A DNA stretch of 62,783 bases, filler included, from Candidatus Woesearchaeota archaeon (GCA_046538795.1; 5 parts of 5 records of this genome joined end to end with filler, not necessarily neighbours in it); one strand, 5' to 3'. Positions 54,001 to 60,000 are shown, numbered from the whole stretch's first letter. Program-made: the numbers.

Positions 54001-57000
54001 TTGGGATCATTCAGAAGAGAGCGTGCGATAAGGACTTTTCTCTTCATCCCTTTAGACATATTTCCAAGCGGCCTGTCCTTTTCAGGAAGATTAAGCGAGT
54101 CAAGAAGATTATCTATCTTTTTTTTTGCCTTATCTTTTGGTATGTCGTATAAGTCTGCAAAAAACATAAGATATTCCATTGGATTCATGCCTTCATATAT
54201 TGCAGATTCTTCAGGAACATATCCTATCTGCCTTTTGATCTTATCTATGTCTTTTTCATAATCAAGATCATCAAATGTTATCTCGCCCTTATCTGGCTTT
54301 AGAAGAGAACATATCATCTTAAGAGTTGTTGTCTTGCCTGCTCCATTAGGACCTATTATTGCAACAATCTCTCCATCATTCACCTCAAAAGATGAATTGC
54401 GCACAGCAGTAAAGTCGCCATAACTTTTTTTTAGATGAGAAACCTTAAGCATTTTCTATACCTTATATAAAATATGAAAAGATCCTTATTTACCTGACCT
54501 TTTGGAACTTTTTTTCTTTTTTGCAGTTGAACTTTTTTTCTTTTTATCTGACGTTTTTTTGGGGGATTCAGTAATGGATTTCTTTTTGTCATAGTTTTTC
54601 ACATAGATGAAAAGTGTAGCAAAGCCCATCTCAAATACTGTCGTAAAAAATGTCACGAAATCCCCTGTATCTGCAGAGAGATAAATCCCCTTAAACCAGG
54701 AAAGATAGAACATGATTAGCATGTAGATTCCTGCAACAACATAATATACAGGAAAAACAAGATTTACAGCAGGATATTTTTTCTTTATGAAATTTATGAG
54801 CAGATATATGCTAACTCCCAGCCAGCCTAATGATATAAACAGATTAAAAAATCCCAACAAACCCTGAAACAGGATACTTTTTGTCTTAAGAGATATGAAA
54901 TATGCTATGAAAAGAACAAAATTAAGTATTATGATACCATAAAGATACCATGAAGGAGTACTCCATTTTTTTGTATTTATCTCATCCAAAAAAGTCATTT
55001 TCACCTCACATATGATTTTCTGGAAGAAGTCATATAAATAAATTGTCTTTTGTATCAGGCTATGAAAACAAGAAAAAATATGAGTGTGAGAGTCATGAAA
55101 AGAGTAAGGACAAGATTCTGAAGTATCTGGTGAGCCTTTATATAATCTCTTTCTCCCTTAACAAGATCAGTCTCAGTAACTATGCCTTTTAGCATGGAGT
55201 CCTCAACAACAGCAAAATGCCTGACATTCTTGGCACGCATAAGCCTGCTTGTATTAATTATTGTGTCTTTGGAAGTTACAGAATATACAGGAGAACTCAT
55301 AACATCTTTTGCAGTAAGCTTTTCAGCATCTTTTGATCTTGAAAGTATCTTTTTTACAAAATCTCTTTCAGATATGATTCCAACAGGCGTTTTGCCTTTT
55401 GCAACAATCACGCAGCTTATGTTATTCTGAGCCATCTTTCTTGATATGTTTTGTATAGAAGAATCCGGCTTAACAGTAACAACTTCACGTGTCATTATCC
55501 CCTCAATCAAAAACATATTTTTAGATTATGGAAAAACTGCTATAAAAAGTTTTGTATTTTAGTCACTTTCTGGTTTTAAATTTTCTTAAATGAGAAATGC
55601 AAAATCATAATCCTCTAATCTCAACTTCATCAAAATATGGCTTTAGTTTTCTTGCAAATTTTTTTATCTGTTCAGGTGTGTACAAAAAAAAATCATTGAA
55701 ACTTGGATCTATAACATCACCTTTATTGAACTGCTGTATAACATATTTTTTTGATCCTTTCAGATATTCTCCTATCAGAAGAAGATCATTTTCTGTAACT
55801 ATTCCAGGAACAAGGGTTGTCCGGAACTCATAATCAAGACCTGAATTTTTAATGAGATTTATTGAATCAGATAATTTATCAATATCAACATTAACCGCTG
55901 CTGCTTCAACATATCTGTTCTTCTTGATTGCAGATTTTATGTCCATTGCGATAAAATCAACATAATTCCTGCCGATCAACTTTTCAAGTATCTTTGGAAA
56001 TGTGCCGTTAGTATCAAGCTTTACATGAAACAGTCTTTTCTTAAGTTCTTCTGCAAGATCTATTATTCCTGAATTAAGGCATGGTTCTCCTCCGGTGATC
56101 ACGACAGAATCAACAAGATGCTTTCTTCTCTCAAGCAATTCCAAAACCGAGTCAAGCTCAAGAAAAGAAGAAAAATCAATATCAGTCACTAATTCCTTAT
56201 TATGGCAAAAGCCACACCTGAAGTTGCATCTGTCAAGAAATATGACGGAAGCTATTCTTCCAGGATAATCGATAAGTGTTGTTCTTTGAAATCCCGCAAT
56301 TTTCATACAAATTCCCCCTTGATAAAAAAACAAGAATTAAAAATAAAAAAAATCAATGAAGCAAATATTTTGCAGTTATGCTGTTTCCTGAGTCTTGATT
56401 TCTTCAGAAACCTTTGAATTTGTGAGCGAAGATACAACTTCACTCTTAAGAGATATATTCTCTAAAAATTCAGTCCTATCCTGAAACTCAGATCTTTTTC
56501 CATGGTTCCAGTTCTGCACAGGCCTGTGATAGCCCACAACTCTTGAATATACTTCACATTTTCTTCCGCATTTCATCTATGCCACCTCTTCTTTCTTCTT
56601 GCTTTCTGTATCTATGCTTTTTTCAACTGCTTGTTCCTCTCCGGCAGAAGATTCCATATCTGAACTGGTATCAGCAAAAGGCTTTTTTTCAGAAGGTTCC
56701 TTCAGATATGCCTTTTCTGATGCAGCCTGTTCCTCAACTTCATAAGGACAGATCTCATGTTTACCAGGAATGTATCCATGAACAGGACATATGCTGAATG
56801 TTGGAGTTATTGTAAAATAAGGAAGCTTGAAATTATAAGCTATCTTCTTTACAAGATCCTTGCATGTCTCAGGATCAGATATCTGTTCTCCCATAAATCC
56901 GTGAAGTACAGTTCCTCCGGTATACAAAGACTGGAGCTGGTCCTGCTTTTCAAGCGCTTCAAATATATCCTGGGTATAATTCACAGGAAGCTGAGTGCTG

Positions 57001-60000
57001 TTTGTATAATAAGGAACTTCGTCTCCGGCAGTTTTTATATCAGGATATTTCTCCTTGTCTATCTTTGCAAATCTATAGCTTGTACCTTCTCCAGGCGTTG
57101 CTTCAAGATTGTATATGTGACCTGTCTCTTCCTGATAATCCTTGAGTTTTTCTCTCATGAAAAGAAGCACTTCTTTTGCAAAAGCTGATCCTTCTTCAGT
57201 AGTTATGTCTGTATCCAGGAAATTCTGCAATGATTCATTCATCCCTAAAAGCCCTATTGTAGAAAAATGATTATTCAGGGTTCCCAGATAACGCTTGGTA
57301 TAAGGCAGAAGGCCTGTCTCAAGGTTATGATTTATTATTTTTCTCTTTGTTTCAAGAGACTGTTTTGCAAGGTCCATGAGATATTCAAGCTTTGAGAAAT
57401 ATTCTTGCTTTGATTTAGAGGTATAGCCAATCCTTGCAATATTTATCGTAACTACACCTATTGATCCAGTCATTTCTACTGCTCCAAAAAGACCTCCGCC
57501 TCTTTGTCTGAGTTCTCTCATGTCCATCTGAAGCCTGCAGCACATGCTTCTTACATCTCCAGGATTAAGGCTGCTGTTGACAAAGTTTTGGAAATATGGA
57601 AGCCCGTATTTTGCAGTCAGCTTGAAAAGCAGATTAGCATTTTCAGAATCCCAGCTGAAATCCCTTGTGATATTATACGTAGGGATCGGAAAAGTAAATA
57701 TCCTTCCATCAGCATCTCCTGATTCCATGATCTCCAGAAAAGCCTTATTTATTATGTCCATCTCTTTCTGGCAATCTCCGTAGGAAAAATCCATCTCTTT
57801 TCCACCTATTATGACTTTCTGATCCTTCATATCTTCAGGCACTACCCAGTCAAGAGTAATGTTGGAGAAAGGGGTCTGGCCTCCCCACCTTGTAGGAACA
57901 TTCATGTTGAATACAAAACCCTGAAGATCCTGCTTGACCTGTCCATAACTAAGGTTGTCCTTTTTTATGTAAGGTGCCAGATATGTGTCAAAAGAGCTAA
58001 AAGCCATGGCTCCTGCCCACTCGTTCTGAAGTGTTCCCAAGAAATTTATAAGCTGCCAGAGTGCAGCATTAAGATGCTTCGGGGGCTTGGAATTTATCTT
58101 TCCAGGAACACCATTAAAACCCTCATGGAGAACCTGCCTTATGCTCCATCCTGCACAATAGCCTGCAATCCCCATGCTCAGGTCATGAATATGAAAATCT
58201 CCATTTATGTGAGCGTCAGAAATTTCATGCGGATACACATTATTCAAAGTATAATTTGCAATCACACTCCCTGCAAGATGAAGAAGAAGTCCTGAATGTG
58301 AATAATTGATATTGCTGTTCTCGTTTACACGCCAATCTTCTTGTCTAAGATAACCATCCATCATGTTATTTATATCGATAAGAAGTCTTTTTGTATCTCT
58401 TATCCTCTTATGCTGATCACGATAAAGTATATAGGCTTTTGCAGTTTTTGCATGGCCTTCTTCAATAAGAACCTTTTCGACAGCGTCCTGCACAGCTTCA
58501 ACATTGGGTACCTGGTCCCCAGGAACACGCCCCTTAAGATAATATAGTACTTTATCGGTCAATTCTGTAGCCATTGACTTGTCGTGGCCTCCAACAGACA
58601 TGGCGGCTTTCATTATGGCTTCTGTTATCTTCTGTTTCTCAAAGTCAACTATCTTTCCGTTTCTTTTTTGTATCTTCAAAAAAAGCTTTGGCGTCATCAA
58701 TTATCCCTCCAATAATAAAACAAAATTTTCCAGATATAGATAAATCTAAACCTACATCTATTTTAATCTAAAAAAATCACAACCCTCGTCAGAAACCTGC
58801 AAAAACAGGTAAATTTTAACTATTGAGTGAACACAACGGGTTGTGTATGATTCATCTTTGAAACACAATATATTGTGTAAATCAGGTCATTTAAATAACT
58901 TTTGTTTTGTCAAATTTCTGATTGAAATGTTTAATTTTTGATAAGGATGATTTAGATTTAAAATATATAATATCATTATTTTTTATGGCGTCCTAAACCA
59001 AGATCTTGAAAGGTTCAATCCTGCTACAAAGGTTTCAAATGCTCCTATTATAAGAGACCCTATGCCAATGATACCAAAAGTGTTTCTCATGTTATTTTCC
59101 TGCTCTGATGTTGAGCTTTCTTCTGATATTATATGGGATTCTGAATATTCTTGTCCATGTATCACAAGTCCGGTCGGACCTGAAGGAAGATTATATACTG
59201 AAAGAACATAGAACGAAAAGATCATCATGCTTATTCCTTTCAAGAAAATTATAAGTTTAATATTTCCCCCCATAAAAAAAGTGATAGGATTTTTGTTTTT
59301 AATATTTTCGGGTCTGTATAATAATTATTGGAAATTAGATTCTGGAAAGTATTCTTGGATTAGACGTAAAAAGTTTCATTTATTAAATAGTTTTATAAAA
59401 AGTTGTCCTTTTTCTAATGAAAAGAAAAATTAAAATTACTCTTGAAAAAATGATTAAAAAAAATTTAGAAGATATTGACGTAACTCAAAAGATAATGGAA
59501 GATTATGAAATGTCTAAAGTTGATTCTGCGATACAGATAAGTTTGGGTGTTGAATGAAAAATAAAATAAGTAATACAACAAAACTGAAATTAGTATATTT
59601 CTTCAAGTCACTTTTTTTCTTTTCACCAATACTCACCCTATTTTATTTTTCAAGAAATCTGAATACATTTCAGGTAGTATCTCTTGAAGCTATACTTATA
59701 GGTGCAGTACTTATTTCAGAAGTTCCAACAGGAATACTTGCTGATAAAATAGGGCGAAAATATTCTCTTCTGATGGTTATACTTCTTTATATTGCAGGAA
59801 ATATCTGGACCATATATGCATATTCATATTTGGAATTTTTTATAATTGAGATCCTGTTTGGGATAGCAATTGCCTTTGGTTCTGGTGCAATTGAAGCACT
59901 TGTCTATGATTCTCTTAAAGTGCAACACAAGGAAAAACAAATGAGCAAGGTCTGGGGCTCGATAAATTCTTATGGACTAATCGCAAGCATGATTGCGGTG

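Follow-up and report, generated by a model that had tools for sequence, protein, structure and literature searches.

The nrdD locus of this Candidatus Woesearchaeota archaeon (GCA_046538795.1) very probably encodes a real two-chain class III ribonucleotide reductase (RNR) with a free-standing radical subunit. An ORF read-out of the window, i.e., the whole 62,783-nucleotide stretch of DNA that was analyzed, showed that nrdD consists of two ORFs on the minus strand, both intact, with nrdG located downstream. To our knowledge, all solved and characterized NrdD proteins of class III RNRs are single chains, and the present locus departs from this in that a stop codon lies between the body and the radical domain. 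A literature search found no published description of an NrdD with a separate radical subunit. The features of the locus are as follows:

56577..58700, minus strand: nrdD large subunit gene (ORF; TAG stop at 56577-56579 included)
58404..58676, minus strand: ATP-cone, residues 9-99 of the large subunit (Pfam PF03477, 74.7 bits)
56745..58322, minus strand: catalytic barrel region, residues 127-652 (taken from the span of the Pfam NRDD hit)
56748..56789, minus strand: putative zinc-site residues of the large subunit, C638, H641 (H648) and C651 (alignment to 8p23)
56580..56744, minus strand: acidic low-complexity 55-aa tail, large-subunit residues 653-707 (ORF read-out and alignment)
56583..56588, minus strand: Shine-Dalgarno-like GAGGTG within the final codons of the large ORF (sequence)
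56376..56576, minus strand: nrdD small subunit gene, 66 aa (ORF; TAA stop at 56376-56378)
56529..56543, minus strand: glycyl-radical motif R-V-V-G-Y, small-subunit residues 12-16 (ORF translation)
55605..56306, minus strand: nrdG activase, radical SAM, NrdG2 type (Pfam Radical_SAM, 76.8 bits)

An earlier note on this DNA had described nrdD as lying in two pieces, with a TAG followed by the ATG of a 66-aa ORF and nrdG next, and the same arrangement was obtained when the ORFs and the junction were re-read. The large subunit has 707 aa when read from the TTG at 58700 and 706 aa from the ATG at 58697. The Pfam NRDD model was found to be divided as previously noted, with positions 1-525 of 562 in the large ORF (579.5 bits) and positions 526-562 in the small ORF (42.1 bits, E 6e-11). 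The large ORF alone scores 1081.7 bits with NCBIfam NF006126 (cut-off 548; positions 3-650 of 684), the small ORF alone is far under every NCBIfam equivalog cut-off (41.4 vs. 326), and a full-length match to the NrdD profile (PF13597, TIGR02487, NF006126) is obtained only with both ORFs together. The gap between the small ORF and nrdG is 69 nt, and the NrdG2 assignment comes from NCBIfam TIGR02495 (183.6 bits vs. a cut-off of 131.15). There is one NrdD body in the genome, which lacks a radical domain, and the small gene is likewise single-copy; a class I RNR (nrdB plus a 556-aa nrdA on contig C36) is also encoded. The large and small ORFs share the same reading frame, an observation absent from the earlier note.

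Besides Cys3 and Cys7, the small ORF contains the glycyl-radical motif and a C-terminal tail of 29 aa. The codon of Gly15 is located at 56532-56534, residues S11-Y16 are invariant in 25 small proteins, and the aligned counterparts of R12-V-V-G15-Y16 are R-I-T-G-Y in 8p23 and R-I-V-G-Y in 4coi. On the large subunit, the finger-loop residues Cys387 and Cys388 do not vary among 22 large subunits of split systems and, in the alignment, fall on the M-G-C-R segment in P. copri NrdD 8p23, a position that we take to be that of the thiyl-radical Cys that receives the radical. The zinc segment of the large subunit reads C-P-V-H-G-Y-I-P-G-K-H-E-I-C-P, and by alignment three of the four canonical ligand positions lie in this ORF (C638, H641 in place of a Cys, and C651), with Cys3 of the small ORF aligning with the fourth ligand. 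Cys7 is an extra Cys that is also present in some fused relatives. The zinc segment of fused relatives is C-x2-H-x10-C-P-x-C-G. Both the gene break and the 55-aa insertion sit within the second C-P-x-C knuckle. Judged from these alignments, the putative zinc site is divided 3+1 between the chains in this lineage, which replaces the earlier claim that each ORF contributes a pair of Cys. The zinc site of the T4 enzyme reportedly consists of four Cys (Logan et al. 2003).

Among the closest known systems are the single-chain NrdD enzymes with their NrdG (phage T4, 1h78/1h79; T. maritima, 4coi/4u3e; P. copri, 8p23), which have a like ATP-cone, barrel and finger-loop Cys, a C-terminal zinc site (putative here) followed by an R-V-x-G-Y loop, and an adjoining nrdG; the sequence matches to 8p23 and 4coi have E values of 1.5e-38 and 8e-37, respectively. 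In the solved enzymes, however, the radical domain is the covalent C-terminus, whereas here a stop, a Shine-Dalgarno (SD) sequence and a start cut the chain inside the second C-P-x-C, so that the 55-aa acidic tail remains on the body and the radical would be on the 66-aa protein. By alignment, this tail is an insertion relative to fused relatives, and the length of the body tail ranges from 3 to more than 55 aa across relatives. A catalytic chain encoded by two adjacent genes is likewise found in the split class II RNR NrdJa/NrdJb (Pseudomonas aeruginosa; Thermus phage phiYS40), in which, according to excerpts of PMC9669993 and PMC3653736, the C-terminal zinc-finger-bearing part is on the second chain. 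That system differs in class, cofactor and break point, and NrdJb has a reducing Cys pair rather than a radical. For phages, PMC3653736 (excerpt) ranks nrdD first among the RNR genes in frequency of splitting, with 6 cases among 128 genomes. The interrupted phage genes are also annotated in pieces (T-even group I intron, Clostridium phage c-st intein, Lactococcus phage 949, Aeromonas phage phiAS4), but the excerpt presents these as intron or intein insertions after whose removal a single chain results, or as a three-piece break of unexplained cause, and describes none of them as a conserved separate radical subunit.

At the junction, the TAG (56577-56579) directly abuts the ATG of the small ORF (56574-56576). 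The spacing from GAGGTG to this ATG is 6 nt, and SD spacing in this genome peaks at 5-7 nt; SD 5-mers were found upstream of 136/975 ORF starts compared to 21/975 internal controls. If the TAG were read through or recoded, the product would be one 774-residue chain and the small ORF would be an annotation artefact. The adjacent TAG and ATG in one frame formally permit low-level read-through in this organism, the NRDD match runs on without a break (616.3 bits) when the TAG is read across, and stop-codon read-through is known in Archaea (PMC1616953, excerpt). Nevertheless, we regard a single read-through product as quite improbable, as several observations argue against it. TAG terminates 151 of the 764 mechanical ORFs of at least 200 aa in this genome, no PylS was found in the genome above the cut-off (best 28 bits vs. 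178), and the CUA anticodon is absent among the 21 tRNAs detected. In a genome of the same family (G377), the same junction is TAA|GTG, in frame and with GAGGTG. In addition, 42 of the 55 linked junctions collected from archaea and bacteria are out of frame, overlapping or spaced and are not fusable by read-through, and a well-spaced SD with an ATG right after the stop would be purposeless for such a product.

The split is widespread. Matches were found in 65 of 151 Woesearchaeales genomes, with a linked split in 22 of those 65, and in 146 of 401 genomes in a larger search; recurrence in this order had been reported before, with a count (24 of 61) that differs from those in the larger samples. 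In a wider sample of the order, 34 of 40 small-ORF matches in 39 newly fetched loci were linked splits. Among genome-contig loci, 22/80 were split, and metagenome contigs added 11 split loci; these locus collections overlap (L087 is L180, and L144/L184 and L145/L181 have identical tails). The 22 split genome-contig loci include those of Deferribacter abyssi strain JR, which is an isolate genome, Calditerrivibrio, Seleniivibrio, Thermodesulfobacteriota, Acidobacteria, Anaerolineae, Saccharibacteria, Micrarchaeota and Iainarchaeum. Homologues of the small protein, 62 in number and 40-94 aa in length, were found in public data. The close small-protein relatives P0001-P0004 (70-83% identity) begin at the same Met. 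In the loci of relatives at 67-74% identity (L144, L145, L147 and L149), the two genes of the split differ in frame or have a spacer between them. Split and fused states are both found within one family and one genus; in fact, a genome of the same family (G133, 79-80% identical) has a compact fused nrdD, and the split is therefore not required in this lineage.

The earlier statement that junctions and frames vary was borne out at the 55 linked junctions, where all three frame offsets occur (+1 in 22, +2 in 20, and 0 in 13) and the large gene ends in TAA (28), TGA (20) or TAG (7). Its individual examples also held: the small ORF has its own ATG in another frame in G016 and G023 (loci L010 and L016), and the gene is fused in G012 (locus L008). 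An SD 5-mer was present 4-16 nt ahead of the candidate start in 45/55 junctions compared to a background of 80/1677 at internal start-type codons (binomial p ~1e-38). On this sequence comparison, the split is not a peculiarity of TAG, as it recurs with other stops, starts and frames. Alternatively, the stop could be false because of an assembly or sequencing error. The MAG consists of 97 contigs and the depth at the locus is only ~8-10, which would favor an error. However, contigs of two runs from two studies, both of which may be the MAG's own source, each span the junction in one piece with 0 differences (depth 7.67 and 9.96, in agreement with what had been noted), and the same architecture is found in dozens of genomes, some of which are single-contig or come from isolates. 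We therefore share the view that this is no assembly error, an explanation that is extremely improbable.

The radical motif is kept in 52/52 small ORFs. The pN/pS values ranged from 0.03 to 0.48 over 17 selected small-ORF pairs, with one example pair having 9 synonymous changes and 1 non-synonymous change, and the small ORFs are thus under purifying selection. In a tree of 109 rows, at least 9 changes between split and fused states are needed, 7 of which are forced by well-supported branches; all trees were made with FastTree and are unrooted, except for one 13-row IQ-TREE run that is likewise unrooted. The split state endures through deep clades, and 9/9 Deferribacterota rows are split in the tree. 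It is conceivable that nrdD is a recently broken pseudogene whose pieces are decaying in an organism that depends on its class I RNR, because the presence of the latter means that nrdD is not demonstrably essential. The intact fused gene of the nearest relative, G133, and the 55-aa low-complexity insertion just ahead of the large-ORF stop are consistent with decay. Against this, both ORFs are intact, the large ORF keeps all the invariants of the 22 sequences and the small ORF all those of the 25, P0001-P0004 share the start Met, junctions of different types retain the SD and the start, and the downstream nrdG is intact. Together with the purifying selection, these findings make decay highly improbable. 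The earlier description of the radical loop as a free-standing mini-subunit is supported by this selection, by the SD at 45/55 junctions, by the D. abyssi isolate and by the TAA|GTG junction.

Modeling of the large and small chains together gave ipSAE values of 0.83, 0.83 and 0.80, while the best of 3 controls was 0.00; the same ipSAE mark was reached by 116/157 solved complexes and 2/215 mismatched pairs. The model runs share at least 85% of contacts, with a partner pLDDT of at least 79. In the model, Cys7 of the small chain adjoins C638, H648 and C651 of the large chain, and large-subunit residues past 657 are outside the interface. The score may arise because the predictor has memorized NrdD structures with a single chain (T4, T. 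maritima, P. copri), and the predicted complex is a sign of likeness, not of binding.

From the anatomy, recurrence and conservation of the locus and the complex model, we infer that both chains are translated, assemble, form the radical and are active, and the enzyme might work as follows. The 81-kDa body would bear the ATP-cone, the barrel and the larger share of the zinc site, and the 7.6-kDa subunit would bear the last zinc ligand and the radical-bearing glycine. The two genes would be translationally coupled through the SD within the end of the large gene and the TAG followed by the ATG, with nrdG next. The small subunit would dock by beta-strand pairing with body residues 634-641, which would complete the shared zinc site (C638, H641, C651, and Cys3 and/or Cys7). 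Its Gly loop would then enter the barrel and adjoin the finger-loop cysteines, NrdG and S-adenosylmethionine would take a hydrogen off Gly15, and catalysis would proceed as in single-chain NrdD.

Oxygen cuts the chain at the glycyl radical. A separate radical subunit could thus limit damage to a cheap, replaceable part, and we tentatively suggest this as the advantage of the split. The small subunit may possibly be an exchangeable radical cartridge, such that oxygen destroys the 7.6-kDa chain only and a fresh, NrdG-activated copy enters the surviving 81-kDa body, although we hold this at somewhat less than an even chance. Fresh cartridges would come from the coupled gene or, in relatives, from extra copies in peroxide or superoxide stress operons. 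Unlinked copies of the small gene in relatives adjoin rubrerythrin, peroxiredoxin or superoxide-reductase genes at 5/11 loci vs. 1/25 control loci (Fisher p 0.006; kin among the loci are not independent), which points to a replaceable part sacrificed to oxygen, comparable to GrcA of pyruvate formate-lyase (PFL).

GrcA/YfiD of E. coli and Y06I of phage T4 are autonomous glycyl-radical spare parts of PFL. Like GrcA, the small NrdD protein is free-standing, is essentially a glycyl-radical loop and is presumably activated by the enzyme's own activase, and relatives carry unlinked copies inside oxidative-stress gene clusters. However, GrcA is homologous to the PFL C-terminus, whereas the small protein matches only NRDD: a Pfam search at E up to 0.01 gave NRDD without Gly_radical, the PFL C-terminus, and NCBIfam gave NrdD models only. 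GrcA also serves an enzyme already equipped with a radical domain, as a supplement to it, whereas here the sole body lacks one and there is one small copy. The arrangement of a fused enzyme plus a spare, absent here, is present in relatives, with two fused NrdDs and two stand-alone small copies in each of G078 and G073 and one of each kind in G051. An excerpt of a 2026 review restricts the known spare parts among glycyl-radical enzymes to the formate lyases (PMC13450708). If the proposal is true, the stand-alone copies would be the first such proteins known for a glycyl-radical enzyme besides PFL, and the split NrdD would mark the endpoint of this strategy, an enzyme wholly dependent on a detachable part.

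The split could also be real but selectively neutral, with genes drifting between fission and fusion and no repair function, because the radical domain binds tightly and the zinc-ribbon linker consequently tolerates stops. This is a serious possibility that we would likewise place a little short of even. The repeated changes in the tree, the occurrence of both states inside one family and genus, and the highly variable tails and junctions are in line with neutrality, as is the finding that the 25 linked-split loci neighbor nucleotide-metabolism genes (NrdR, NrdG, dUTPase, dCMP deaminase) and not stress genes. On the other hand, the split is kept through whole clades such as the Deferribacterota, the unlinked copies lie by stress genes at the frequency given above, and the stand-alone copies mirror the NrdD paralogues of their genomes in number and type.

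Class III ribonucleotide reductase (RNR) is a textbook single-chain glycyl-radical enzyme. In the window, reading of the open reading frames placed its gene, nrdD, in two pieces:

58700 to 56577, minus strand: nrdD large ORF (the body), from a TTG at 58700 (ATG at 58697) to the TAG at 56577-56579
56576 to 56376, minus strand: small ORF of 66 codons with the radical motif, its ATG directly after the TAG and its end at 56376

The reading frame is the same in both ORFs. Pfam searches showed that the large ORF contains an ATP-cone and NRDD profile positions 1-525 of 562 (579.5 bits), and that the small ORF contains positions 526-562 (42.1 bits, E 6e-11); NCBIfam has no model for the small protein. 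An NrdG2-type activase gene (TIGR02495, 183.6 bits vs a cut-off of 131.15) is located 69 nt downstream of the small ORF, and no second NrdD was found in the genome (G000; 97 contigs, 1.34 Mb). An earlier note had proposed a real split with a free radical subunit, and this is supported by its recurrence across lineages, stops and frames. Our data indicate that the two-polypeptide class III RNR is genuine and widespread, and it is apparently undescribed.

Runs of N at 15106-15205, 30282-30381, 45228-45327 and 60119-60218 show that the window is several contigs joined, and the nrdD operon belongs to contig C8 of the genome (14,791 bp). The ORF upstream of nrdD (58701-59300) specifies a hydrophobic protein of 96 aa. 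NrdR, whose gene is directly upstream of nrdD in most linked-split relatives, is encoded on C14 (L220) here. Bacterial-type promoter and terminator sites between 55400 and 59100 were no commoner than in shuffles, the models being bacterial and the host an archaeon. Outside the window, on C36 (L003-L006), the genome carries a compact class I RNR operon alongside the split class III enzyme, made up of a 265-aa NrdB-like gene and, after it, a 556-aa NrdA-like gene that lacks an ATP-cone.

Recoding of the TAG would join the two in-frame ORFs into one chain. TAG terminates 151 of the 764 mechanical ORFs of at least 200 aa in G000, and no match to PylS was obtained above the cut-off in this genome. 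No CUA tRNA was present among the 21 tRNAs detected by aragorn, which is weak support because the tRNA set is incomplete. SD 5-mers precede 136/975 ORF starts in G000 compared to 21/975 internal control sites, with a spacing peak at 5-7 nt, and GAGGTG is found exactly 6 nt ahead of the small ORF's ATG. In G377, a genome of the same family, the junction is TAA followed by GTG, in frame, again with GAGGTG 6 nt upstream. Four loci whose bodies are 67-74% identical to that of the window are also split: L144 in frame +2, L145 in frame 0 after a 21-nt spacer, L147 in frame +1 and L149 in frame 0 after a spacer. Within this lineage the two-gene layout is thus conserved while stop identity and frame vary, which argues against TAG-specific recoding. 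Two runs, each from a different study, have a Logan contig that spans positions 56200-57000 in one piece with 0 differences; these runs may be the MAG's own source, so that only an assembler artefact is excluded. No RNA run was found among the public runs holding the junction stretch.

The two-gene anatomy was compared across 55 linked junctions, where the small ORF directly follows a radical-less body; they come from the 151-genome search, the one-genome-per-species collection and the metagenome contigs described below. The small ORF was offset by +1 in 22, +2 in 20 and 0 in 13, and the body ended in TAA (28), TGA (20) or TAG (7). Stop-to-start distances were mostly -8 to +5 nt, including ATGA overlaps and direct stop-ATG adjacency. 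An SD 5-mer was located 4-16 nt before a candidate start in 45/55 junctions (mean of 1.8 candidate starts per junction), compared to 80/1677 (4.8%) of internal start-type codons in the same genes (binomial p ~1e-38). No SD was seen in 10 junctions, among them those of a CPR-like clade with long spacers and that of L165. L165 was rejected as the same kind of split, since its break is at another position, upstream of the P-T-F-S motif, its contig is 1.2 kb long and it resembles a frameshift; it is still counted in the 55 and the 10.

The split recurs widely. The 66-aa protein matched 65 of 151 Woesearchaeales genomes, of which 22, G000 included, had a linked split, and a profile of the small protein matched 146 of 401 genomes of the order. 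Of the 40 small-ORF hits in 39 loci newly retrieved from this larger set, 34 were linked splits, 5 were stand-alone copies and 1 was a fused form. A word-index protein search returned 62 proteins of 40-94 aa, with Deferribacter desulfuricans, D. autotrophicus, Calditerrivibrio nitroreducens and a Falkowbacteria MAG among the names. When a Deferribacter small protein was searched against a one-genome-per-species collection, the best 80 loci (81 hits) fell into 22 split and 58 fused cases, the remaining hit being a frame that a contig end interrupts. The 22 include the isolate D. abyssi strain JR, other Deferribacterota, Thermodesulfobacteriota, Acidobacteria, Anaerolineae, Saccharibacteria, Micrarchaeota and Iainarchaeum. 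Metagenome contigs added 11 further linked cases in 36 loci.

These collections overlap in the loci counted (L087 = L180; identical tails in L144/L184 and L145/L181). L087, from an NCBI MAG titled Methanosarcinales, is identical across the nrdD region to L180 of G377, from this Woesearchaeales family, and one of the two taxonomic labels is probably wrong. Short frames without an upstream body (L148, L167, L179) and those of G101:C98 and G025 from the 151-genome search were kept outside the classes, and the frames of L009, L015 and L082 are cut by contig ends. Unpublished genomes are G132 and G121 in the 65/151 set, and G132, G206, G375, G336, G210, G121, G245, G183 and G338 in the 146/401 set; G132 (L018) is among the 22 linked-split genomes, the trees, the 55 junctions and two of the pN/pS pairs. 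The conclusions are independent of the unpublished genomes.

The radical motif was retained in 52/52 small ORFs examined, and uncorrected pN/pS was 0.03-0.48 for 17 hand-chosen near-relative pairs of small ORFs (for example, 9 synonymous differences and 1 non-synonymous in L068/L069, and 19 and 3 in L080/L081). A FastTree tree of 109 bodies (66 fused, 43 split), built without L087, L180 and the later-fetched metagenome-contig and 401-genome loci, required the state to change at least 9 times, and branches with local support of 95% or more force 7 of these changes. Some clades were uniformly split, such as the Deferribacterota (9/9 rows). The window's body, split G377 and fused G133 formed one clade (92/94), all 79-80% identical, as an unresolved trichotomy (IQ-TREE, 13 rows, 320 columns; L147, L149 and L087 dropped), so that both states occur within one family. 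The trees are unrooted, so the changes may have gone either way. The fused G133 locus (L014) has C-K-D-H-G-Y after the first ligand Cys, as in the large fused Woesearchaeales clade, compared to C-P-x-H-G-Y in nearly all split bodies; judging from this motif, its fused C-terminus may have been gained by recombination rather than re-fusion.

The position of the break was determined by comparison with fused relatives from the same taxonomic order, which have C-x2-H-x10-C-P-x-C-G-x3-E-V-Y-S-R-V-V-G-Y. The large ORF ends with C638-P-V-H641 ... C651-P, a 55-aa acidic low-complexity tail and the stop, and the small ORF begins M-K-C3-G-R-K-C7-E-V-Y-S-R-V-V-G15-Y. In HMMER alignments, E-I-C-P of the large ORF corresponds to E-V-C-P of the P. 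copri NrdD structure 8p23, and K-C-G of the small ORF to the next 8p23 segment, K-C-G-S, so that insertion and break fall within the second C-P-x-C knuckle. The split of NrdD proposed in the earlier note is therefore confirmed, while its 2+2 division of the zinc site is replaced by 3+1, based on 8p23 and the fused relatives. Cys7 is an additional Cys that is present in some fused relatives too (e.g. C-P-E-C-G-A-E-C-E-V-Y). Other divisions exist: in L040, L041, L043 and the Deferribacterota the body carries all four ligands and the small chain has one Cys, and a 2+2 division occurs in L051, L053, L055 and L056, which belong to a second NrdD subtype ~27% identical to the window's NrdD. An intein or intron as the origin of the split was ruled out, the insertion being 55 aa of low complexity and the junction consisting of stop, SD and start. 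In L057-L069 (Deferribacterota, Thermodesulfobacteriota and Acidobacteria) the body terminates in a heptad stretch that looks helical, and a second one of ~20 aa precedes the K-G-x-x-C-E-V-Y segment of the small chain; from their sequence, the two may form an inter-subunit coiled coil.

A complex was modelled from body residues 106-707 (alignment of 22 split-type bodies) and the small chain (alignment of 25). The ipSAE values were 0.83, 0.83 and 0.80, compared to 0.00 for the best of 3 controls; the mark for this score is reached by 116/157 solved complexes and 2/215 mismatched pairs. Contact agreement between runs was at least 85%, and partner pLDDT at least 79. The firmest modelled contacts join small-chain residues 7-10 to body residues 634-638, Cys7 is set by C638, H648 and C651, and the body tail past residue 657 is outside the confident interface. 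Single-chain NrdD structures have been solved, so the high score may reflect what the predictor learned from them; what the model shows is that the pieces still resemble one NrdD, a likeness and not binding. Beyond these observations (the layout of the genes, the signals of coupling, their conservation and recurrence, and the model), a mechanism can be proposed. Both chains would be made, and the small chain would dock through strand pairing and the shared zinc site. Docking would bring Gly15 to the finger-loop cysteines C387/C388, which are invariant in the alignment of 22 split-type bodies. NrdG would then install the radical, with catalysis proceeding as in single-chain NrdD.

No account of an NrdD built from two chains, with the radical on a subunit of its own, was found in the open-access literature searched, which likewise yielded no paper on NrdD and Woesearchaeota and, on NrdD and Deferribacter, a listed paper whose title is unrelated. 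In the papers examined, "split" alongside NrdD and glycyl radical is used in other senses. A split class II RNR, NrdJa/NrdJb, is described in PMC9669993. For 128 phage genomes, PMC3653736 reports 6 cases of an nrdD in pieces, the breaks being group I introns, inteins, or an unexplained three-piece break in phiAS4; one of these breaks might separate the radical domain.

Questions in the field include the route by which the buried radical domain reaches its activase, the role of the zinc site, and the way anaerobes handle cleavage by oxygen. The two-chain form would offer a ready-made minimal NrdG substrate, its zinc site may serve as an inter-subunit clamp, and it permits a direct test of radical-part exchange after oxygen damage. 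Since the split occurs in cultivable Deferribacter and Calditerrivibrio, these ideas are bench-testable. In annotation, the small genes of 40-100 aa are often unnamed or labelled hypothetical and the large gene appears truncated, so that automated metabolic reconstructions could misjudge oxygen-free dNTP synthesis.

Small NrdD-type radical ORFs without an adjoining body were found at 11 loci in 11 genomes (13 ORFs in total). Neighbours called by Pfam were as follows:

L039 (G134 C9): Fur-family regulator, small ORF and two rubrerythrins, on one strand
L203 (G307 C18): thioredoxin, small ORF, rubrerythrin and desulfoferrodoxin, on one strand
L049 (G073 C63): two small ORFs, then two rubrerythrins
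L017 (G149 C34): peroxiredoxin downstream
L201 (G259 C177): peroxiredoxin downstream
L017, L047, L049, L050 and L207 (G149, G078, G073, G051 and G174): AsnC-type regulator, divergently transcribed

A peroxide or superoxide detoxification gene lies on the same strand within ~1.5 kb in 5/11 stand-alone loci, compared to 1/25 linked-split loci, where it is 2.7 kb away (142 ORFs scanned) and the usual neighbours are NrdR, NrdG, dUTPase and dCMP deaminase. The Fisher p of 0.006 overstates the significance, since related loci do not count as independent; L047 and L207 come from one genus. L052, L054 and L211, of the second subtype, have no detoxification neighbour. In both G078 and G073, a tandem pair of fused NrdDs is accompanied by a tandem pair of stand-alone copies, with loops of the same two sequence types, and G051 has one of each (fused/stand-alone loci L137/L047, L138/L049 and L139/L050, respectively). 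Such stress-linked, paralogue-matched copies are the pattern expected of a spare part like GrcA, the radical protein that serves pyruvate formate-lyase; according to a 2026 review (PMC13450708), no enzymes other than formate lyases have known spare parts. The runs holding the window are labelled microbial-mat metagenomes, and a mat origin together with an oxygen-dependent class I RNR fits life at an oxic/anoxic boundary. The window has a single linked small gene with no adjoining stress gene, so the idea of an exchangeable, oxygen-sacrificial cartridge rests on the relatives; extended from them to the small chain, it is a tentative reading, to which we give slightly less than even weight.

The ORFs of the stress-gene-linked stand-alone loci are 39-100 aa long, and the divergent AsnC-type regulator is conserved beside the L047, L049 and L050 copies. 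The tandem fused paralogues are ~770 and ~700 aa, and the stand-alone proteins consist of zinc ribbon and radical loop. In some split systems (L213-L216 and L218, from G259, G307, G243, G200 and G378) the small subunit reaches 147-173 aa, its radical loop being followed by a glutaredoxin/NrdH-like domain that bears a C-x-K-C motif, so one small chain would carry both the radical and a likely reductant domain. The same extension is found on fused forms of ~820 aa (L013, L019, L022, L025, L028, L031, L032 and L036).
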